IMG/VR virus record: IMGVR_UViG_3300010938_000036
Coordinates: 821-64,820 of that record
DNA length: 64,000 nucleotides
DNA from: a virus
Lineage: Duplodnaviria > Caudoviricetes
Direction: 5' to 3' (one strand)
The number at the start of each line of letters is the position of its first letter. The first letter of the stretch is position 1. Shown here piece after piece: positions 5,735 to 63,758 of the stretch. The position numbers and the translations under genes are program-made. The notes beneath the pieces are model-generated. The model had not been told where the DNA came from. It made no database searches and worked only from the letters and a program-made list of their open reading frames with translations.

Positions 5735-7259
5735 TTTATTAGAAAAACTTAAAAAGCGATATATGTCTGCACCATTAGAAGGGAAGCAGTTATTAAGGGA
5801 TAATTTGATTGCTTTGGCCGCTGCTTGTGGGAAGGAACAGGAAATTCAAAATTTTATTGAACAGGTTGATGGAGGAAGGATTAATTCTCTGGATGATTTA
5901 AAGGTAGCACAGGAAGAAGAAAAAAAGGATGAAATGGAAGGTGAGGAAGTCAAAAAAGAGGAGATGAGGGAACGAGTAGAAAAATTAGAGCCAGAAGAGG
6001 TAAGGGAGGAACCAGAAGTAAAGAAAGAGGTTGAGCAACAGAAATCGGATTTACAATTACAAAAAATTAATGATAATATAAATGAAGTTTTGCAGAGATT
6101 GGAACAGATAAATAAAACATTGCAGGAACATGAAACAGCGCTTAAGGAGCATAAAAGGGTTTTAGAACATTTATTGCAGGAAGAAGAGGAAGAGGAGGAG
6201 AAGGAACCAAAGGTAGATGAATTTGGAGTAAGATTTAGTTCTGATTTAGAAGATTTAAACGAAAATAAAAAATATGCTAATATAAGGAGGATTGCTATGG
6301 TGAAGGAACAATCAAATAAAGAATTAAGTCCTACAGAGCGTCGTAAGGCCAGGTTACAGAAATCTGCACAAGAGGAAGCACCTAAGTCTTTGAAAGAATT
6401 TTATAATGTTGAAAAGGATATAGAGAAGATGAAAAAACTGCCTCGAATTCCAGAGACGCCGTATACTACGAAGGAACAGTTAGAGAAGAGGAAAGAGGAG
6501 GAGAAAGAAAAAATTAAAACAAGGGTATGGGATTTGTCTCGGTTAGCGGCTGAACTGACTGATGATGAACAGAGTTGGATAGTGAGTTATGAGGGCAAAC
6601 CTATTTATGCAATTAATTATAAGGATAATGAAAATCGTGTAGAAAAGGATGAATTTGTTTCAACTGGTTTTGGTAAAGGATTATTAAAAACGCTTGCTCT
6701 TAATGGTGAGGAAGAACTGCAAAAGAAGTTTAATATAACAGTTCTTGGTGAACCTAAGAAAGAGGAGGAGAAGGAGGAAAAGAAGGAGAAGGAGAAAGAG
6801 AAGGAAAAAGAGGCTGCGTATGAGATTAAATTTGAAAGGGCATGGAGATTGGCGAATGCTGTTTTGATGAAGAATTTAAGTGATAATCCACTTAAAGGAG
6901 CGCTTTTTGAGATATTTAGTAAGAAGGCAGAACTTAAGAATCCCGTGCCATACATAGAGGAAGCATTTAGAATGGCAGCGGATAAATATTTTGATACAAT
7001 GATGTCTTTGACTAAGAAATATATGAATTTGGACGATAAAACAATTGCAGAAGTAGAAGAATTTGTTAAAAGTGCAAGAACCCAGGTGGCGAATTTGGAT
7101 ATAAATGAGAGAACTGATTTAGTAAGAGAGATGGAAGCACAAGAATTAAGGCGTAGAGCAGAAGCGGGTTCAATCCCTCTTGTGAGCAATGATTTTGTAA
7201 GGGAGGATCCGCTTAGAAGCGCTATGCCTAAACCTTTAAACTGGTATAATATTAAATAA
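5727..7259 (+). CDS. Probable capsid scaffolding protein (E/K-rich, coiled coil)
   Basis: Lies between protease and capsid genes; highly charged; internal AAGGAGG plus in-frame ATG at 6297. Confidence 0.55.
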   Translation: MDNLLEKLKKRYMSAPLEGKQLLRDNLIALAAACGKEQEIQNFIEQVDGGRINSLDDLKVAQEEEKKDEMEGEEVKKEEMRERVEKLEPEEVREEPEVKKEVEQQKSDLQLQKINDNINEVLQRLEQINKTLQEHETALKEHKRVLEHLLQEEEEEEEKEPKVDEFGVRFSSDLEDLNENKKYANIRRIAMVKEQSNKELSPTERRKARLQKSAQEEAPKSLKEFYNVEKDIEKMKKLPRIPETPYTTKEQLEKRKEEEKEKIKTRVWDLSRLAAELTDDEQSWIVSYEGKPIYAINYKDNENRVEKDEFVSTGFGKGLLKTLALNGEEELQKKFNITVLGEPKKEEEKEEKKEKEKEKEKEAAYEIKFERAWRLANAVLMKNLSDNPLKGALFEIFSKKAELKNPVPYIEEAFRMAADKYFDTMMSLTKKYMNLDDKTIAEVEEFVKSARTQVANLDINERTDLVREMEAQELRRRAEAGSIPLVSNDFVREDPLRSAMPKPLNWYNIK

Positions 7260-9290: not shown

Positions 9291-9872
9291 ATGGGCAAGA
9301 ATTTTAATGATATTATTCGTGATTTAGATTGGTGCGCTGAAACCTTAGAGAGGAAGGGATTACAGCGATTTGCGGAGGAAATTGATAAAATAACTGCGAT
9401 GATTGAGGATGGAGCGCCTGAAGAGGAAGTGGCAAACAATATTTTACGAGTTTCAGATATGATAAGTGAAGCAGAATTGATAAGCGCAAAGAAAGAGGAA
9501 GAGGAAGAAGAAGAGAAAGAGGAGAAGGAGGAGAAAAAGGCAAAGAAGGAGGAGGAAGAAGAGGAAGAAGAAGAGAAAGAAAAAGAAGCATCATTTAGGG
9601 AATGGCGTAGAAGGATGTTGGCAAAAAGGCGGCTTAAGGAATTAATGGAAAAAAGGAAAAAGAGGTCTTGGTTGAGAGAGGCAGAACCAGATCCCGAACC
9701 TGAACCTGAACCTGAACCTGAACCGAGAAGGCCTTATGAATATCGTCCTTCGTATGAATATAGACCCTATGAGTATAGACCGTATGAGTATAGACCATAT
9801 GAATATAGACCAACAACTGCAATGAGTCCTACTGCAAGAAGGATTAGAAGACGTAAATTAGATGAAGATTAG
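9291..9872 (+). CDS. Low-complexity putative internal head protein
   Basis: GGAGG RBS; poly-E/K tract, (PE)n and (YEYRP)x5. Confidence 0.6.
   Translation: MGKNFNDIIRDLDWCAETLERKGLQRFAEEIDKITAMIEDGAPEEEVANNILRVSDMISEAELISAKKEEEEEEEKEEKEEKKAKKEEEEEEEEEKEKEASFREWRRRMLAKRRLKELMEKRKKRSWLREAEPDPEPEPEPEPEPRRPYEYRPSYEYRPYEYRPYEYRPYEYRPTTAMSPTARRIRRRKLDED
9684..9812 (+). repeat. Coding tandem repeats: GAACCT-type hexamers (9684-9725) and five TATGARTATMGWCCN 15-mers (9735-9812)
   Basis: Read directly; the 15-mer units differ only synonymously. Confidence 0.9.
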
Positions 9873-14340: not shown

Positions 14341-14369
14341 TTGACTTTTAAAATTTTTTTTATTATAAT
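14341..14369 (+). promoter_or_regulatory. sigma70-type promoter upstream of the tail operon
   Basis: TTGACT-N17-TATAAT. Confidence 0.7.
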
Positions 14370-14372
14370 GTT

Positions 14373-14578
14373 AATAGGAGGTTGGAAACAGTTGAGTAAT
14401 TTATTGATAAATGTAGAGATTTCATGTAAGGTAATGGTAGGACTGAGCAGACCGAAAGGATCTCAGTCTAAGAGATTTGTGCCTGGCCGAGGCCATACTG
14501 GTAGAGATACCAGCGATGTTCTCGTTAAGGCGAGGAATTTAGTTGTGGACACTTTTGTCTACAACTAGAAAGGCAGGT
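14373..14578 (+). repeat. Dispersed 206-bp element, copy 1 (RBS + internal promoter + structured RNA)
   Basis: Ungapped match to 58271-58476 with 10 mismatches. Confidence 0.95.
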
Positions 14579-14579
14579 C
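14439..14579 (+). ncRNA. Putative structured RNA (~140 nt), copy 1, family not recognised
   Basis: Starts 7 nt after TTGATA-N17-TAAGGT (14404-14432); stems 14440-47/14462-69, 14480-84/14571-75, 14498-503/14508-13, 14519-25/14530-36, 14540-51/14556-67. Confidence 0.7.
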
Positions 14580-14584
14580 ATTAA

Positions 14585-16342
14585 ATGGCAAATAGATTAC
14601 CAGGTGTGGTTGTAAGAATAGTTCCTGAGATAGGGCAGGTAACAATACCTTTATTTCAAAGGTATGTTTGTATAATAGGTCAGGGAGAACATAGATTATT
14701 GCAATCTAATGAAGAGGTAGTGCGTAGTTCTGTAAACAATTATGATATTTTTTCTAAAAGTTTTGTAGAATTGATAAGAGTTGGATTGGTTCCAGACGCT
14801 TCTGATTTTGTTCAAGGGACACATTTTAATATTTATACGCAGGGCGGACAGAATGTAGGTATTCAATGGAATCCATTAGTTCCTGCTTCTACTAATCAAT
14901 CTTGGTCAATTGCAGAACCTTTTGATTTTACAACAAATAATAAATTAAAAATTAATATAGATGGATTAGGGGATGTTATTATAGATTTATCATCATTGGG
15001 AAATTCTGCTACTGCTGCGCAGGTTGCAAATGTAATTAATACAGCATTGAGTAATGCTTACGGAACAGCATATAATTCTGTAGCACAGTTATTCCCTTCA
15101 CCTACGAATGATAAGGTTCAACTTGTTTCTCCTACAAGTGGAGAAAATTCAAAAATTGTTTTTTATGATATTGCTAATAATGCTTTTGTGGAAATTTGGG
15201 GAAATGGACCTGCACCTAACACCTGGCCCAACGGTATATTAGTATTAACAGGAACAGGTAAACAACCTGCTGCTGGTCAAACTTATTATGTGACTTATCG
15301 TTATAAGGCACCAGATTCAACTTATGAACCTACATTGTATTTTGATTTAAAACCTATTTATAATGAACATGGAAGTAGATTTCTTGCTAATCCATCTAAC
15401 CCAACTCAGATTAATGAAATTGTTTTGATGGCAGAAATGGCATTTCAGGATTTGCCTGAGAGAATACCTGGAATTGTAGTTGCTCAATTGGATTTAAGAA
15501 ATGCAGTTAATCCTTATGAACCTACACCATTGGAATTGCGAGATGCTTATATTGCAATGTTGGAGAAGTTGGAAAGGGTAACAGAAGGGAAATTATATTT
15601 AGTTTTAAATACGACTGATAGCCAAGTTTTGGATGAATATTTTAATCATGTAAGGACGATGAGTCAACCAGAAATTAAGGCAGAAAGGATGTTATGTATA
15701 ACGATGCCTCCTGGTAGTTCAATTAATGATTATATAAGTTCAACTGGAGCGCCTCATTATAAATCAGAAAGGGTAATGTTATTTTATCCATCTATGATTT
15801 ATGTAGACAGTGTGGGGCAGGATTTACCAAATTATTATGCGCCTTTGATTTATGCTGCAAGGAAAACTGCGGTTCCTATTGCGACACCTATTAATGTAGA
15901 ACCGTTACCTGGTATTACATTAAAGACAGCACCGACTTATAATGAAAAGAAGATTCTATTGGCGAATGGTGTTGCGGTAGTGGATATTGTTGAAGGGCAG
16001 ACGGTGATTTTACATGGTATAACAACAAGAACAGATTTTGTAATTTATGAGGAAGAAAATGTGGTTGATATTGCTGACTATGTTAAATTTATATGGCGTA
16101 AAAGAATGTTTGAATTATTTAAAAATGCTCCTATAGATGCGCCGACATTAAGGTCAATGGTTACAACTTCTATTGCATTGCTTGATTCTTTGATTAGAGA
16201 TAGGATAATAGCGGATTACAAGAATATTCAAGCGGTTCAGGATAATGTTGAGCCGAGAATGGTAAGAATGCGTGGTAAGGTAAAACCTATGTTTCATGTA
16301 TTGTATATGGACATAGAATTTACATTTTCAACAACCTTATAA
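14585..16342 (+). CDS. Contractile tail sheath protein
   Basis: N-terminal RLPGVVVR; C-terminal LLANGVAVV...GITT...EENVVDIADYV...IIADYKNI...KPMFHVLYMDIEF. Confidence 0.85.
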   Translation: MANRLPGVVVRIVPEIGQVTIPLFQRYVCIIGQGEHRLLQSNEEVVRSSVNNYDIFSKSFVELIRVGLVPDASDFVQGTHFNIYTQGGQNVGIQWNPLVPASTNQSWSIAEPFDFTTNNKLKINIDGLGDVIIDLSSLGNSATAAQVANVINTALSNAYGTAYNSVAQLFPSPTNDKVQLVSPTSGENSKIVFYDIANNAFVEIWGNGPAPNTWPNGILVLTGTGKQPAAGQTYYVTYRYKAPDSTYEPTLYFDLKPIYNEHGSRFLANPSNPTQINEIVLMAEMAFQDLPERIPGIVVAQLDLRNAVNPYEPTPLELRDAYIAMLEKLERVTEGKLYLVLNTTDSQVLDEYFNHVRTMSQPEIKAERMLCITMPPGSSINDYISSTGAPHYKSERVMLFYPSMIYVDSVGQDLPNYYAPLIYAARKTAVPIATPINVEPLPGITLKTAPTYNEKKILLANGVAVVDIVEGQTVILHGITTRTDFVIYEEENVVDIADYVKFIWRKRMFELFKNAPIDAPTLRSMVTTSIALLDSLIRDRIIADYKNIQAVQDNVEPRMVRMRGKVKPMFHVLYMDIEFTFSTTL

Positions 16343-22491: not shown

Positions 22492-23472
22492 TTGACAGGG
22501 GTAAGAATCAGATTGGTTAAGATTGTGAGTATAGATCCATTAACAAGGACTTGTACAGGTGTAGTTATTGATACAAATACGCCAATTAATAATATTTTTA
22601 TAACAACAAGTGCGCAGGATTTAACTTTGCCTAAGATTTTTGATGAAAAGGGTGATAATAATTTAGGAGAGGGTCAACTTGGAGTAGTGATTTTTGATGA
22701 TTTTGAGAGACCTTTTTTGATTTCCTTTATAGAAGTTAATAATCCACAAAAAGTGGAACAGGCATTGCGTCCAAGAATTAGACCTGGTGAGGTTTATCGT
22801 TTTGGTCCTGCAGGTCAATCTTTAAGAATGGATGTAAATGGGAATTTTTCAATTTCATCTGCGCTTCTGGATGGTATTTTTTATGATGTTAAAAACAGGA
22901 TTCTGGCATTGCGGGCAAATTTAATTAATTTATTTGGAATTGGCTATGAGATGTTTTTGGGTATGGTTCAGCGTTTAGGTAATTTTATCTTAAAGGGAAC
23001 TGAACTGGCTTTTGAATTTGCAGTTCGTTTATTTAATCCAATAACAAAAAATAAATTAGCAGAAGTAATAATAGGTGATGTTTATGATGAAGATGGTAAA
23101 CCGATTCCAGGGAAAATGCAAAATGCAGTTTTGTTATTGCGATTATTTAATGATTTAGGAATTCAGGTTAATAAATTGATTGTGGATAAGGGTGGTGATA
23201 TAATATTAGAGATAGCAAATAGTGATATAAGTTTTAAATCAAAAATAAAAGTATCAGGAGATGTGACCTCGCAAATAGTTTTGGAAATAAAAGAATTATT
23301 AGTAGGTGGAGAAAGTAATTTAGAGAAGGTTTTATTAGGAGAGACCTTTTGGAGACAGGTTTTTATAACGCATACGCATTCTACAGCAGTAGGACCAACT
23401 TCTCCACCACAGACTGTTTTGCCTGATAATATGGTATTGGCGGATGTTATGAAGGTTAAGAGAAATATATAG
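22492..23472 (+). CDS. Baseplate central spike protein
   Basis: N-terminal OB-like region, beta-repeat middle, C-terminal THTHSTAVGPTSPP iron-binding HxH motif. Confidence 0.7.
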   Translation: MTGVRIRLVKIVSIDPLTRTCTGVVIDTNTPINNIFITTSAQDLTLPKIFDEKGDNNLGEGQLGVVIFDDFERPFLISFIEVNNPQKVEQALRPRIRPGEVYRFGPAGQSLRMDVNGNFSISSALLDGIFYDVKNRILALRANLINLFGIGYEMFLGMVQRLGNFILKGTELAFEFAVRLFNPITKNKLAEVIIGDVYDEDGKPIPGKMQNAVLLLRLFNDLGIQVNKLIVDKGGDIILEIANSDISFKSKIKVSGDVTSQIVLEIKELLVGGESNLEKVLLGETFWRQVFITHTHSTAVGPTSPPQTVLPDNMVLADVMKVKRNI

Positions 23473-23483
23473 GAGGTTGGAAA

Positions 23484-23732
23484 ATGCTGATAGCAGATAA
23501 TCTTAAACAGGTTATTTTGAATGAAATGCAGGCACAGGGGTTTCCATTACAAACGGAGGTTCAGGGTGAAATTCAAAATACTGGATTGGACAAATTAGCG
23601 ACTGCACTGGCTATAGCGATTATTGATTATTTAAAACAAAATGCTGAAGTTGTGGTGCAACCTGGAACTTTTTTGATTTCGGCGCAGGCAGGAGTTCCTA
23701 ATCCCTCGCCTGTAATTTTGACTTTGAGGTAA
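23484..23732 (+). CDS. Small baseplate-region protein
   Basis: GGAGG RBS; LATALAIAIIDYLKQNAEV motif often follows spike genes. Confidence 0.55.
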   Translation: MLIADNLKQVILNEMQAQGFPLQTEVQGEIQNTGLDKLATALAIAIIDYLKQNAEVVVQPGTFLISAQAGVPNPSPVILTLR

Positions 23733-35085: not shown

Positions 35086-36830
35086 TTTTGGTTGAGCGGG
35101 ATAAGAATAATTTGAGGGTTTTTTCTGATATAGATTTAAAAGGGTTAGAAGTTCTCACGCTTAAAAAAATGAATAATGGGTATTTTTTAGATGTGCGGGA
35201 TTTTTTGAATTTTAAAGAAAAATTAGATGAAATGAATATTTCGGAACGGGAAATGACTAAAGAGGCAATGGATTTATTGCACGATTATTTTAATAAAATA
35301 GAAAGATATGAGGAGATTAAAACCAGTAAGATTTTGAAATATTCTAATTTTGCTGATAAGATTTCGTTACATATAAAAACGCAACCTTTTATAGACCAGA
35401 TAGCAGGTATTAACTTTTTATTATCAAGGCAGTTTGTAGGCAATTGGGATACTATGGGGTCAGGAAAGACTTTTATGGCACTTTCTGCATTTAGTATTTT
35501 AATGGATAAGGGTTTAGTTAAAAAAGGATTGGTTGTTTGTCCTAATATGGTGAAATTATCCTGGCAGAGTGAAATAGAGAAACATACAGATTTAAGTTAT
35601 AAAATTGTTGGTAATGGAACCGTTGTAGTTTTGTCAGATTTAGAGGAATATGAAAAAAATCCTAAAAATTTATTAATAATTCATTATGATTGTTTTATCA
35701 AGGAAAATATAAAGGAAGCATTAAAGAAAATGAATTTTGATGTAATAATTTTTGATGAGGTTCATTTAATTAAAAATTTAAAAACGCAGAGAACTAAAGC
35801 AGTTCTGGATTTCATTGATTATGTTAAGAGGGCAGAACCCTTAAATGGGATAGATTTTTGTGAAATTGTTAAGCCAGATAAGCCTTTTATTTGGTGTTTT
35901 TCAGGAACACCAGTATCGGAGCATCCTAATAATGCTTTTGTATTATTGAAAATTCTTGATCCTAATTTTAAAATTAATTTTTTTCAGTTTGACAGATTTT
36001 TTAATCGGTATATAACAATTAATGTTAAAAAAAGATTGATTAAAAAATTGATAGGATTTAAAAATATAAGTCATCTTAAAAGATATTTTGTTCCATTATC
36101 TATTAGACGAACTCGTGAAGAGTTGGTTGGTATGCCAGAAAAGATTTTTATGGATAGGATTCTGGAATTTTCTGAGAAACAGCAAAAAATATATAATACT
36201 GTGCGGGAGGGTGTTTTAAATGAATTACGGAAATTGGACAAAAGGGTTAATCTATTAAGATTAGAGAATGTTTTGGTGAGATTACATCAAGTTTTAAACC
36301 ATCCTCAGATTTTAGATATGACTTCTGAATCTATAAAGCATGATGCAATATTATTTTTATTAGAGGAACTCTTGCAGAATAATCAAAAAGTAATAATATG
36401 GTTTATATATAGAAAGGGAGGAGAATTGTTATATGAAAAATTAAAATCTTTGAAAATTCCTGCTGCGCTTATTTATGGTGGTGTAGAATTAGAAGAATTA
36501 GAAAAAATTAAAGATTTATTTGAAAAGGATAAGATTAGTGTTATTTTAGCATCTATTAAGAAAATGGGAACTGGAATTGATTTTTTGAAACAGGCGAGAA
36601 CTGCTATTTATTTAGATTTACCTTTTAGTTTAGTAGAATATATGCAATCACAGGATAGGATTGTCAGGAGAGGAATTTTTACTCCAGCCGTTTTTATTCA
36701 TTTAATAGTTAAGAATACTTTAGATGAATTAATTTTATCTTTATTAAGAAGGAAGACATCTTTTTTAGAAAGTATAGTAGATGATAAAGATATAGAGGTT
36801 GATATAAATGAAATCCTCCAGCAAATTTAG
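35082..36830 (+). CDS. SNF2-family helicase
   Basis: DTMGSGKT, DEVH, SGTP, GTGID, QSQDRIVR. Confidence 0.85.
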   Translation: MILVERDKNNLRVFSDIDLKGLEVLTLKKMNNGYFLDVRDFLNFKEKLDEMNISEREMTKEAMDLLHDYFNKIERYEEIKTSKILKYSNFADKISLHIKTQPFIDQIAGINFLLSRQFVGNWDTMGSGKTFMALSAFSILMDKGLVKKGLVVCPNMVKLSWQSEIEKHTDLSYKIVGNGTVVVLSDLEEYEKNPKNLLIIHYDCFIKENIKEALKKMNFDVIIFDEVHLIKNLKTQRTKAVLDFIDYVKRAEPLNGIDFCEIVKPDKPFIWCFSGTPVSEHPNNAFVLLKILDPNFKINFFQFDRFFNRYITINVKKRLIKKLIGFKNISHLKRYFVPLSIRRTREELVGMPEKIFMDRILEFSEKQQKIYNTVREGVLNELRKLDKRVNLLRLENVLVRLHQVLNHPQILDMTSESIKHDAILFLLEELLQNNQKVIIWFIYRKGGELLYEKLKSLKIPAALIYGGVELEELEKIKDLFEKDKISVILASIKKMGTGIDFLKQARTAIYLDLPFSLVEYMQSQDRIVRRGIFTPAVFIHLIVKNTLDELILSLLRRKTSFLESIVDDKDIEVDINEILQQI

Positions 36831-47328: not shown

Positions 47329-47979
47329 ATGATTAAGTTTGAGGATAACGGATTTGGTTTTATAAAACGGAGTGATAGAGCAGAGGAAAAAAAAGATAGA
47401 TGTTTGACGGGATGGGAGGTAATCGATAATGTTTTGAGATTACCTCCTTTTTCTATTATACAGGTTTTTGGATGGGAAGATGTAGGTAAGACTTCTTTTG
47501 CTTTATTTTTTGCCAGAAAATTTAAAGAAAAAAATCCAGATAAACGGGTTTTATTTTTTGATTTAGATAAAACACTTGATTTAAGTTTTGCTCAAAAGAT
47601 TATTGATAATGCAGAAATTATAGTTTTAAAATTAAGTAGGATAGATGACATTTTATATAGTGTAGCAGAAATTCAACCTGAATTAATAATTTTTGATTCT
47701 ATTGTTAATTTAGAAAATTTAAATATCAGGGAAATGATAAGATTAATTAAGGGTATCAAAAATAAAATAGATAAGGGGATAATTTTATTGGTTAATCAGA
47801 AAAGGCAGAGTAATTTTGTAGAAACCATCTTTTTATGGGATATTTATTTTTTATCTTTTTTAGTGGCGGAGTTAACTAAAGAACCTCTTATTAATGATAA
47901 TTTTGCGGTTAAAATTTTTTTTAATAAAGCACCAGCGATTCTTTTAAATAAAGAATTTAAGGTTGATTTTATTTTATAA
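47329..47979 (+). CDS. Short RecA/RadB-like ATPase
   Basis: TGWEVIDNVL, GWEDVGKT, FFDLD, IIFDSI, LVNQ. Confidence 0.7.
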   Translation: MIKFEDNGFGFIKRSDRAEEKKDRCLTGWEVIDNVLRLPPFSIIQVFGWEDVGKTSFALFFARKFKEKNPDKRVLFFDLDKTLDLSFAQKIIDNAEIIVLKLSRIDDILYSVAEIQPELIIFDSIVNLENLNIREMIRLIKGIKNKIDKGIILLVNQKRQSNFVETIFLWDIYFLSFLVAELTKEPLINDNFAVKIFFNKAPAILLNKEFKVDFIL

Positions 47980-47985
47980 TTTTTG

Positions 47986-48014
47986 TTGACTTTTATTTTT
48001 TAAAACAATAAAAT
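47986..48014 (+). promoter_or_regulatory. sigma70-type promoter
   Basis: TTGACT-N17-TAAAAT; ATG at 48022. Confidence 0.65.
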
Positions 48015-48021
48015 AAAATTA

Positions 48022-56445: not shown

Positions 56446-58275
56446 ATGAGTGATGAAATAAAAACTAATAATGAGAAATTGCCTACAGTGGTGCCTTTTG
56501 GGGTTAAGGCACGGGGAGGATTTTTTAGTACTGCTGAATTTAAGGTAAGAGCGCAACCTTTTCTTGGATTGGGTGGTCCTATTTCTGCACCGCAGGGTGG
56601 ACTTGGAACTGTTATAACCACAGCACCTATTTTTTATGATATTCGTTATTTTACTCCTGATAAATTTTATTTCCCAAGACAAGAATTAGAACAAAATGAT
56701 ATATGGCGTTTAATTTATAAAAGGGACCCTATTGTTGGTGCAGCAATTGATTTGTATGCTGAATTTGCCTGGTCTAATTTTGATTTGGTAGGAATAGATG
56801 ATACTGCTGTTCGTTCTGTTTATGAAAATACAGTCGCAAATTTAAATTTGTTATCAATTTTGCCAGATATGACTAAAGAATTTTTAATCATTGGTAAGGT
56901 TATACCACATTTAATTTTTTCAGAAAAGGATGGGATTTGGAAACATGTTTTTATTCATGATCCTGACTATATTAAAATGACGGTGCTACCTTTTGCTAAT
57001 GAGGAACCAATTTTGGATTTAAAGGTGCCACCTGAATTAAGACAATTGGTAATTTCTCCTGATCCAAGAATACAAAAAATTGTAGCAAAATTGCCAGAGA
57101 GTATGGTGACTGCAATATTAAGTTCGCAATTTATTCCTTTGGATAATTTAAATGTAACTGTTATTCCTCGTCGGGCTTTTGCTTCTGATTGGAGAGGGAT
57201 TTCTATTTTAGAAAGACTTTACAGGATGTTAATGTTTGAGGATTTTTTGATGAATGCAGCATTGGCTGTTGCACAGCGTAATGCAGTTCCTTTAAGAATT
57301 TTTAAATTGGGTGATCATAAAGTTGATTGGTATCCTACAAAAGAAGATGAAAATGCGTTGAGTGAATTGTTGGCGATTGCAGAGGCGGACCCGATGTCCG
57401 CTTTGATAATGCATTCTGGAATAGAAGTAGAATATGTTGGTGTTTCTGACCGTTTTTGGAATGTTGCAAGAGAATGGGATTTTATTGAAAATATTAAATT
57501 GGTGGGATTAGGTGTAAGTAAATCTTTTCTTATGGGGGAGGCATCTTTTGCCAGTGCGGTAGCGGGTTTGCAAACTTTTGTTCAAAAGGTAGCAGGATTG
57601 CGTATGAAATTTGAAAATGAATGGATTGTTCCTAAGATTTTTAAAACAATTGCTAAAATACATAAATTTTATAAACGGACACCAGCAGAATTATCATATC
57701 GTATTCGTTTACAAAAGGAGGATTCAGATTTATTATACCCTGTTATTAAATGGCACAGGTCATTAGAGCCAACTCAAGATACATCTTTATTAAGCGTTTG
57801 GCGAGAATTACATGATAAAGGTATAATTTCAGATAGAACTTATGCTGCTGGTGCTGGTCTTAATCTGGATGTAGAAAGACAAAATAAATTAGAAGAAGAA
57901 CAATATAAAAAGAAGATAGAAACAATGGTAACAAAAATTCAATCTCAGATGGGGAATGAAACTGGATATCATGTTCCTTCTAAATATATACATGCATCTT
58001 GTTTTGATAAGCAAGGATTTTTTAAAGGTGTTCATTATTCTGAATTAGAACCAGTAATAGCATTTATTAAAGGGCATCAAGTAGATGAATTTAAAGGAAT
58101 AGATAATTCTTTGTCTTCAATATATCATTATTTGCGGGAGAAGAATTGGGATGATAAAAAATTAGATGCATTGACAGAATTATTAAAAATTGAGAAAATA
58201 TTAGTAACTCCTGATAAAATTTATGAAGAAATAGAGAAAGAGACATTACAAAAAGATTTTTTATCAGGGAAATAG
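56446..58275 (+). CDS. Portal protein
   Basis: DPIVGAAIDLYAEF, WRGISILER, PLRIFKLGD, LGVSKSFLMGEASFA; 609 aa, near terL. Confidence 0.8.
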   Translation: MSDEIKTNNEKLPTVVPFGVKARGGFFSTAEFKVRAQPFLGLGGPISAPQGGLGTVITTAPIFYDIRYFTPDKFYFPRQELEQNDIWRLIYKRDPIVGAAIDLYAEFAWSNFDLVGIDDTAVRSVYENTVANLNLLSILPDMTKEFLIIGKVIPHLIFSEKDGIWKHVFIHDPDYIKMTVLPFANEEPILDLKVPPELRQLVISPDPRIQKIVAKLPESMVTAILSSQFIPLDNLNVTVIPRRAFASDWRGISILERLYRMLMFEDFLMNAALAVAQRNAVPLRIFKLGDHKVDWYPTKEDENALSELLAIAEADPMSALIMHSGIEVEYVGVSDRFWNVAREWDFIENIKLVGLGVSKSFLMGEASFASAVAGLQTFVQKVAGLRMKFENEWIVPKIFKTIAKIHKFYKRTPAELSYRIRLQKEDSDLLYPVIKWHRSLEPTQDTSLLSVWRELHDKGIISDRTYAAGAGLNLDVERQNKLEEEQYKKKIETMVTKIQSQMGNETGYHVPSKYIHASCFDKQGFFKGVHYSELEPVIAFIKGHQVDEFKGIDNSLSSIYHYLREKNWDDKKLDALTELLKIEKILVTPDKIYEEIEKETLQKDFLSGK

Positions 58276-58476
58276 GAGGAAGGAAACAGTTGAGTAATTT
58301 ATTGACAAATATAGAGATTTCATGTAAGGTAATGGTAGGACTGAGCAGACCGAAAGGATCTCAGTCTAAGAGATTTGTGCCTCGCCGAGGCCATACTGGT
58401 AAAGATACCAGCGATGTTCTCGCTACGGCGAGGAATTTAGTTGTAGACACTTTTGTTTACAACTAGAAAGGCAGGT
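58271..58476 (+). repeat. Dispersed 206-bp element, copy 2
   Basis: Ungapped match to 14373-14578; includes the portal stop codon. Confidence 0.95.
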
Positions 58477-58477
58477 T
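58337..58477 (+). ncRNA. Putative structured RNA (~140 nt), copy 2
   Basis: Follows TTGACA-N17-TAAGGT (58302-58330); same stems as copy 1, with a cUACGg tetraloop. Confidence 0.7.
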
Positions 58478-58482
58478 CGAGA

Positions 58483-58716
58483 ATGTTTGAGATTATAAGT
58501 TTTGTGTTAAAAAAAGCGTTTTTGAAGATGAAGGGGCTTTTAGGTATTGATGAGGAGATTGAACTTCTTGCAAAGCAGATTGCAAAACTTTCTAAAAAGC
58601 CAGGATTTGACCAGGCAAGGATAAGGAATTTGATAGTAGTAGAATTGATGTATCCGCAGGCGGTTTTTGATGCGGCTTGGGAAAGATACCTGAAGGAATA
58701 TAAAGGAAAAGCATAG
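58483..58716 (+). CDS. Small hypothetical protein (LKKAFL motif)
   Basis: ATG 58483 at the same offset from the element as the sheath ATG in copy 1. Confidence 0.6.
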   Translation: MFEIISFVLKKAFLKMKGLLGIDEEIELLAKQIAKLSKKPGFDQARIRNLIVVELMYPQAVFDAAWERYLKEYKGKA

Positions 58717-63660: not shown

Positions 63661-63688
63661 GGGAGGGGATGAGAGGCGGTAATTTTTG

Positions 63689-63717
63689 TTGATTTATGTT
63701 GAGTTATATTATATAAT
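63689..63717 (+). promoter_or_regulatory. sigma70-type promoter inside the IS left end
   Basis: TTGATT-N17-TATAAT. Confidence 0.6.
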
Positions 63718-63758
63718 AGTTATATGAAATCAGGTTACCCTAGAGGATATAAAACATT

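Follow-up and report, generated by a model that had tools for sequence, protein, structure and literature searches.

The IMG/VR record IMGVR_UViG_3300010938_000036 (Caudoviricetes), from an uncultivated phage, contains two copies of a strongly folding insert of approximately 195-205 nucleotides (nt). Each lies between the Shine-Dalgarno sequence (SD) and the start codon of a structural gene, namely the tail sheath gene (copy 1) and the gene that follows the portal gene (copy 2). The window analysed covers 64,000 of the 64,820 bases of this record, which has an estimated genome completeness of about 37%. Our preferred interpretation, to which we assign a probability of about 0.4, is that the insert is a non-autonomous cassette retained in the mRNA, which supplies a replacement SD to the downstream gene and perhaps couples translation via an open frame of its own. 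The features discussed below are listed in Table 1.

The two copies were aligned without gaps at 95% column identity, with 10 differences in columns 1-205. Both start at ATAGGAGGnnGGAAA and end 6 nt 5' of the gene ATG. The homology of the block stops at column 205 (AAGGCAGGT), and the last six nucleotides before the ATGs (CATTAA versus TCGAGA) differ at 5 out of 5 positions before a shared A. In the initial annotation, exactly 196 nt had been reported between a strong SD and the next ATG at both sites. The 196 nt up to the gene ATG were confirmed letter by letter; the gene ATG is not the next one, as the insert contains three internal ATGs (columns 51, 61 and 143), and copy 1 contains four. 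The spacing is equal at both sites because the copies are collinear and their tails are equally long. An nhmmer search over the window matched only these two copies, and the 64.8-kb record holds no more.

The comparison with relatives that had been proposed, a search for empty sites at the sheath and post-portal genes, was positive at both loci (2 sheath loci and 21 portal loci). The closest named phages are far off, with portal identities of 36% to Virus Rctr197k and 30% to Bacillus phage G. The sheath relatives were found by way of the sheath protein: in the first (L024), the sheath was 63% identical and 11 out of 13 tested window proteins were matched in the same order; in the second (L025), these values were 52% and 9 out of 13. 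Both syntenic sheath loci exhibit an SD separated from the ATG by 7 or 8 nt, without the insert. The pre-sheath region of L024 has TTGACA-17-TAAAAT followed by an approximately 45-nt leader and GAAGGAGG-attaaat-ATG, and that of L025 closes with GAGGAG-aggttgat-ATG. The gap between a 199-codon gene and the sheath gene measures 79 nt in L024 versus 245 nt in the window. At the L024 and L025 loci, the insert was matched neither by a covariance model nor by nhmmer, nor by tblastn with its open reading frame (ORF). The resident 45-nt leader of L024 is absent from the sheath locus of the window, so the event at this locus resembles a replacement more than it does a clean insertion.

At the portal site, the relatives compared were only about 50% identical and several of the 21 loci are near-duplicates of each other; the closer portal homologues P0002-P0005 (58-70% identical) were left out of this comparison. 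The next ORF, picked mechanically as the first one with 45 or more codons and without detectable homology to that of the window, begins between -14 and +55 nt from the portal stop in all 21 loci, and within 13 nt in 19 of them. Five loci (L003, L006, L007, L008 and L014) have GAG, GAGG or GGAG directly after the stop, like the window; one such relative reads ggaaaaTAG-GAGTTTATT-ATG, versus gggaaaTAGGAGG in the window. Because relatives carry a stop followed by GAG(G) or GGAG at this position, the upstream SD of the portal site seems to be native to the locus and the 196 nt to be an addition. The status of both copies as insertions follows from the relatives without the insert at the two loci.

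Among the sequencing runs found, only one (X1, a DNA run labelled hot springs metagenome and available as Logan contigs) contained a close strain, which differs by 2-3%, and the source phage seems to be a hot-spring phage. An X1 contig covering 14470-14560, on copy 1, exhibited four differences (14516, 14525, 14528 and 14547). As three of these correspond to the letters of copy 2, the contig probably represents copy 2 of the related strain. With the A>G change at 14516, a predicted U-A pair would become U-G and the open frame would encode Gly instead of Asp. None of the X1 contigs spans the insert, and no joint across it was seen among them.

Beyond these loci, blastn against 50,697 phage records retrieved no similar DNA. 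Exact and degenerate patterns of the core gave nothing in viral, metagenome and genome contig collections, a result that leaves aside diverged copies, which would escape such patterns. A covariance model (R1) of the 149-nt core, made from only two near-identical rows, retrieved nothing from the loci of 23 relatives at an expect value (E) ≤ 10, and nhmmer over the 207,882 bases of the same loci gave nothing below E = 5.6. In these searches, no copy of the insert was found outside the present phage lineage.

An open frame of 58 codons, overlooked in the initial annotation, occupies most of each copy, from a TTG located 10 nt 3' of GGAGG to a TAG located 16 nt 5' of the gene ATG. In columns 1-192, this frame has no stop, versus 9-10 and 4-5 stops in the other two. 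It remained open over 58 codons in 0.54% and 0.71% of 20,000 dinucleotide shuffles of the two copies (P = 0.0054 and 0.0071), and any of the three frames was open in 1.9% and 2.4% of the same shuffles (P = 0.019 and 0.024).

This excess (P ~0.006) could indicate an ordinary small protein gene of 58 residues with a TTG start and its own ribosome-binding site (RBS), present in two copies, in which case the 196-nt gap would be an overlooked gene. The order SD-N10-TTG, 58 open codons, TAG and next SD is normal operon packing, and a public gene caller indeed called copy 2 (P0090). We nevertheless consider such a gene unlikely. The codon score of the ORF was -0.05 and -0.10 per codon in the two copies, versus 0.343 ± 0.109 in genes; among the 316 gene windows, only 3 and 2 scored below them, and the other small genes (8 out of 8) had scores of 0.27-0.50. 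The nucleotide differences within the ORF were mainly non-synonymous (6 out of 8, with 2 synonymous). In a phmmer search against 1.84 billion representatives, the sole match of the ORF was itself (P0090), while PHROGs returned 0 families for the 58 residues and an ESM Atlas search gave no usable match. A single-sequence AlphaFold2 model reached a mean predicted local distance difference test (pLDDT) of 63.9 and a predicted template modelling score (pTM) of 0.28. The language-model recognition value was 1450, versus at least 2300 in 91 out of 100 known-family proteins, although this tool gives no verdict on whether a gene is real. The hairpin content of the region is also exceptional. Judged by its letters, the open frame does not look like an ordinary native protein gene of the present phage.

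The 3' end of the insert carries a second SD (SD2, AAAGGCAGGT), directly after the TAG and with its AGG 7 nt before the gene ATG. Several junctions of the present phage are built in this way (stop, SD, about 7 nt, ATG), and a stop abutting the next SD is also found at other junctions, for example before 7274, 16355 and 53410. With an anti-SD assumed to be the general one, the predicted duplex energies were -10.2 and -10.9 kcal/mol for the upstream SD (SD1), -8.8 kcal/mol for SD2 and -12.4 kcal/mol for a strong phage gene. The unpaired probability between 37 and 70 °C was 0.68-0.98 for SD1 and 0.47-0.76 for SD2. The initial annotation had described the SD-like AAAGGCAGGT as paired in a closing stem. 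This stem (7 pairs, of which 3-4 are G-U, depending on the copy) does take in part of the RNA motif AAAGGCAGGU, but the motif is only about half occluded; given its unpaired probability, SD2 is not locked away.

These features can be combined as follows. The cassette would have been placed, or copied by RBS recombination, just 3' of the resident SD of two late structural genes. The captured SD1 (AGGAGG), unpaired and 10 nt before a UUG, would open the 58-codon frame, which would pass through all five hairpins of the insert and end at a UAG followed directly by AAAGGCAGGU (SD2), 6 nt and the gene AUG. Ribosomes loading at SD1 would melt the hairpins, stop 16 nt upstream of the gene and perhaps help it by termination-reinitiation. 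Because the cassette is built like the phage's own gene junctions, it would be harmless to the essential genes that it precedes, and this junction-like 3' end suggests that ribosomes most likely use SD2 to initiate on the sheath and post-portal genes. The GC-rich folded RNA may contribute to stability, regulation or the element's own propagation. A cassette of this kind would explain at once why there is an insertion, why the frame is open, why the peptide sequence is irrelevant and why the 3' end resembles a gene junction.

A mobile element that targets RBS spacers and brings its own promoter and RBS had been among the initial proposals. The empty sites in relatives and the terminal SD-like AGG 7 nt before the ATG agree with it, but the promoter does not. 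No promoter-like site was found in the interior of copy 1, and the single site found in copy 2 (TTGACA-17-TAAGGT) overlaps the ATG and matches only 3 out of 6 positions in its -10 hexamer. The sheath copy is instead preceded by a sigma-70-like promoter that lies directly 5' of it; since transcription should start about 7 nt downstream of this promoter, SD1 would fall at the extreme 5' terminus of the mRNA. Sites of the TTGACT-17-TAAAAT type sharing the repeated motif TAATTTTTGTTGAYT... were also observed at 47977-48015 and 63680-63718, with a weaker version at 35746-35784; by their letters, these motifs resemble the promoter before copy 1 and are candidate phage promoters.

The RNA fold was predicted for both copies. 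The RNAalifold consensus comprises three separate domains: an AU-rich 5' hairpin (columns 15-54), a second hairpin (H1, columns 67-96) and a multi-branch domain (columns 101-206) consisting of the four hairpins H2-H5, with the weak 7-pair stem at its base. The hairpin loops are GAAA, GAGA/AAGA and UAAG/UACG. Compared with shuffles, the z-scores of both copies ranged from -3.6 to -4.6. The + strand fold was 11-13 kcal/mol more stable than the - strand fold, owing to G-U pairs; the z-scores of the - strand were equally strong (-4.35 and -5.46). The 149-nt core has a G+C content of 47% versus 31.7% for the window, which is about 3 standard deviations above the mean of 150-nt windows. Among the substitutions between copies, four fall in paired columns and all retain a standard pair via G-U, and four others fall in unpaired columns; by simulation, such pair-keeping has a chance P of 0.117. 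No pair was changed on both sides between copies, and covariation cannot decide here, since only two near-identical copies are available. The base of H1 (58338-58371 and 14440-14473) combines UAGGA on one strand, UCUAAG on the other and a GAAA tip, an arrangement that we take to resemble the GAAA tetraloop and 11-nt receptor motif. An 8-bp long-range helix of copy 2, CCTCGCCG (58380-58387) with CGGCGAGG (58426-58433), was considered as a rival to H2/H4 and rejected, as two of its pairs are broken in copy 1.

Such a fold might belong to a functional non-coding structured RNA, acting either as a cis-acting leader (in stability, antitermination, thermosensing or as a protein operator) or after being processed out of the mRNA. 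Under this reading, a second late gene would have acquired its own copy of the RNA, and the frame would be open by chance alone. We regard this as possible, though less probable than a cassette retained in the mRNA. The z-scores and greater stability of the + strand, the high G+C content of the core, the loop types and the retention of standard pairs at all four paired-column substitutions are consistent with it, as are the alien codon usage of the ORF, its lack of a homologue and the start of copy 1 at about the position where the transcript of the near-consensus promoter should begin. It is weakened by a frame that is open beyond chance, by the P value of 0.117 for pair-keeping with no two-sided change, by the absence of any Rfam match and by the equally strong - strand z-scores; a second carrier lineage, which would permit a covariation test, was not found.

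It had also been proposed that the insert acts as a structure-bridged RBS. In such a "split" RBS, of which T4 genes 25 and 38 provide examples, the fold would bring SD1 near the AUG. SD1 is indeed strong and unpaired, the insert folds stably, and the principle is established for spacers of 22 and 27 nt (PMC3014915). The consensus fold does not bear this out: its three domains are separated by about 12 single-stranded nt, and the 5' and 3' ends of the insert (columns 9-20 and 200-211) are not connected by any helix. The 196 nt are also about 7-9 times the length of the T4 spacers, and bridging is unnecessary given the presence of SD2. We consider this mechanism very improbable, more so than any other weighed here.

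The remaining initial proposal was an intron of the 5' untranslated region. Whether self-splicing or removed by processing, such an intron would on excision rebuild GGAGG-N7/8-AUG and switch on translation. Deletion of the 196 nt does yield an ideal RBS at both sites, as had been noted, and relatives have exactly such RBSs. The fold is compact, multi-hairpin and includes a GAAA loop, and the insert is close in size to the smallest group I introns. Portal genes of relatives often contain inteins (8 out of 84), which indicates that self-splicing parasites circulate in the clade. However, no Rfam 15 family (of 4227) matched anywhere in the window at the gathering score, and the five matches obtained at E ≤ 10 in 58200-58560 were weak, at chance level, and included no intron or ribozyme. 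The Intron_gpI covariance model in particular gave no match at the gathering score in the window or at E ≤ 10 in 58200-58560, and the same was true of group II introns and ribozymes. At the junctions proposed initially (A|C and A|A), the U and G required by group I introns are missing, and with the only U shared near the 5' junction (columns 19-20) and the last shared G (columns 203-204) as splice sites, the SD would end up about 18 nt from the AUG. Inspection by eye revealed no convincing P3/P7-type pseudoknot, and an SD of its own 7 nt before the AUG would be needless for an intron. A precedent is offered by the cyclic di-GMP-dependent group I ribozyme of Clostridioides difficile, which is located between the RBS and the start codon, so that its removal would join them (PMC3984707). 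The ribozyme can be recognised as a group I intron and contains an aptamer, whereas the insert has no match in Rfam and has unsuitable splice-site letters. Overall, an intron appears quite improbable.

The 15-mer that contains SD1 is repeated a third time, at 23469-23483, where it directly abuts the ATG at 23484, as claimed in the initial annotation. Allowing at most one mismatch, this pattern occurs three times in the window versus 0.12 expected, and none of 100 shuffles reached three. In copy 2, the TAG within the 15-mer is the portal stop codon; in copy 1, the AGGAGG is, by its context, probably the resident SD of the sheath gene. Three readings of the 23469 site are possible: an empty site, a scar or a short patch that was copied. 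Two models of the boundaries fit these data. In the first, the cassette would correspond to columns 11-205, inserted 2 nt after AGGAGG into resident spacers of 8 nt (TT|CATTAA and AA|TCGAGA); the variable dinucleotide and hexamer and the ATTAAAT spacer of L024 agree with this, and the GGAAA at 23469 would be a scar or a short copied patch. In the second, which was proposed in the initial annotation, the target would be ATAGGAGGnnGGAAA|ATG, with 23469 unoccupied and the hexamers as filler; this would require three genes with an almost identical RBS, unlike the other RBSs of the present phage. Recombination via ATAGGAGG microhomology is possible.

The insert could also belong to an undescribed class of structured RNA, about 195 nt long and without a protein, which would home specifically between SD and start codon and be tolerated through either excision as RNA, in the manner of a new small ribozyme or intron, or translational transparency; the 15-mer at 23469 would be its unoccupied target. 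We consider this improbable, more so than a small gene and somewhat less so than an intron.

Several points weigh against a translated, SD-supplying cassette. The P values of the open frame were computed after the frame had been seen, and a six-frame count raises them to about 0.04-0.05. TTG starts are rare among the ORFs of the present phage, and the UUG is mostly paired in copy 1 (unpaired probability of 0.01 at 37 °C and 0.34 at 70 °C). SD2, with one bulged C, is the weaker of the two SDs, which would not be expected where large amounts of sheath protein have to be produced; the anti-SD used for the duplex energies may moreover not be that of the host. Five strong hairpins with GAAA, GAGA and UACG loops, as predicted here, fit a functional RNA better than a ride-through frame, and the high G+C content and hairpin density are left unaccounted for. 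The 15 out of 15 identity with the site at 23469 stays unexplained. The limits of the element can be drawn in more than one way, and SD1 may be part of either the target or the cassette. Finally, no mobility enzyme was found in the record, though this represents only about 37% of the genome: Y1 transposase (PF01797) and TnpB (PF07282), one of which would be the partner of an IS200/IS605-derived element (PATE or omega-RNA carrier), and HNH all gave no match in the 64.8 kb. Of the marks of a MITE- or MPME-like transposable element, occupied and empty sites were seen among related genomes, whereas terminal inverted repeats were not found in the insert, in which the only inverted repeats are internal hairpin arms (H5 and, in copy 2, also 58380-58387/58426-58433).

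Table 1. Position of the insert copies, their parts and the neighbouring genes in the 64,000-nt window.
Feature	Position	Strand	Remarks
Homologous block (columns 1-205), copy 1	14374..14578	+	Runs from ATAGGAGG to AAGGCAGGT
Homologous block (columns 1-205), copy 2	58272..58476	+	
SD1 15-mer ATAGGAGGTTGGAAA, copy 1	14374..14388	+	Followed by 196 nt and ATG 14585
SD1 15-mer ATAGGAGGAAGGAAA, copy 2	58272..58286	+	Followed by 196 nt and ATG 58483
Third 15-mer ATAGGAGGTTGGAAA and ATG of 82-codon gene	23469..23486	+	Gene: phrog_5576
58-codon open frame, copy 1	14392..14568	+	TTG start, TAG stop
58-codon open frame, copy 2	58290..58466	+	Called gene P0090 in public collection
SD2 AAAGGCAGGT, copy 1	14569..14578	+	Directly after ORF TAG; AGG 7 nt before ATG
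SD2 AAAGGCAGGT, copy 2	58467..58476	+	AGG 7 nt before ATG
Non-homologous hexamer CATTAA, copy 1	14579..14584	+	Resident spacer remnant or filler; compare ATTAAAT in L024
Non-homologous hexamer TCGAGA, copy 2	58477..58482	+	
Hairpin core, copy 1	14440..14569	+	Fold prediction
Hairpin core, copy 2	58338..58467	+	Fold prediction; same core as in copy 1
H1, copy 2	58338-58367	+	Internal loop, GAAA loop
H2, copy 2	58379-58391	+	
H3, copy 2	58392-58416	+	
H4, copy 2	58417-58434	+	
H5, copy 2	58436-58467	+	14 bp
Weak closing stem, copy 2	58372-58378 with 58471-58477	+	
Sigma-70-like promoter TTGACT-17-TATAAT	14341..14369	+	11/12 matches; directly 5' of copy 1
Tail sheath gene	14585..16342	+	phrog_2839
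Portal gene	56446-58275	+	phrog_16240, E 5e-92
Post-portal gene, 77 codons	58483..58716	+	No family matched; codon usage native (0.338)

Several known systems resemble the insert in part. The mycobacteriophage mobile elements MPME1 and MPME2 are, like the insert, very small and found at varied sites in collinear genomes, with empty sites in kin; they also contain a small ORF and show no target duplication. MPME1 measures 439 bp, has terminal inverted repeats and carries a longer ORF, of 123 codons, whereas the insert measures about 195-205 nt, is without such repeats and is found specifically behind an SD; a relation in sequence is not expected. At one end of MPME insertions, 6 bp of unexplained origin are described (PMC3029335), and the non-homologous hexamer of the insert before the ATG recalls them. 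In T4 genes 25 and 38, the SD is similarly far from the AUG with structured RNA in between, in the form of spacers of 22 and 27 nt with one closing hairpin (PMC3014915). According to the same source, the T4 arrangement is restricted to close kin and absent in more distant relatives, which can be likened to the distribution of the insert. The insert differs in its 196 nt, its three domains, the lack of a closing helix, the second SD by the AUG and the open frame. Upstream-ORF coupling, in which a strong SD far upstream could load ribosomes that unfold the RNA, is also comparable, as the frame of the insert stops 16 nt before the AUG. STAB-SD sequences are 5' stabilisers of Gram-positive mRNAs, in which a strong SD could protect the mRNA. 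Upstream ORFs and STAB-SD sequences are resident leaders, whereas the insert is present in two copies and absent from kin.

Other features of the record were observed. The ORFs of the window are almost all on the + strand. A second direct repeat, of about 170 nt (138-305 and 2353-2520, about 88-90% identical with small indels), brackets a 692-codon ORF for an N6 DNA methylase (256-2334, PF02384, E 7e-44), and its second copy enters an ORF with a TSCPD domain (2444-2800, PF12637), a region presumably linked to ribonucleotide reductase. From this layout, it looks as if a methylase insertion of 2.2 kb had entered a ribonucleotide-reductase-like gene region, with duplication of the target. Among the portal homologues, intein or homing-endonuclease Pfam domains (PF14890, PF05203 and PF14528) were found in 8 out of 84 (P0056, P0058, P0060, P0061, P0065, P0068, P0072 and P0078). 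In two relatives (L020 and L023), the portal match is in two pieces, 0.6-1.2 kb apart; the portal gene of the window has no such insert. Purine-rich runs of GAG/GAA/AAG (12 copies of a loose 26-nt unit) at 6178-6812 and 9490-9587 lie inside two ORFs and correspond to low-complexity protein segments rich in Glu and Lys.

Phage inserts in essential genes are normally tolerated by being spliced out, as introns or inteins. Here, two essential virion genes each have a tiny insert in the region where translation is initiated, and the letters of this insert gave no indication of splicing. For annotation, the region calls for caution, since a gene caller sees a hypothetical protein of 58 residues, whereas a reader without tools sees an untranslated gap of 196 nt. 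If SD1 is captured for a ride-through frame and SD2 is donated to the gene, the insert would represent a different and very economical form of neutrality for a parasite or a regulatory cassette; if it is instead a new self-excising or regulatory RNA of an apparent hot-spring phage, it would represent a new RNA class.

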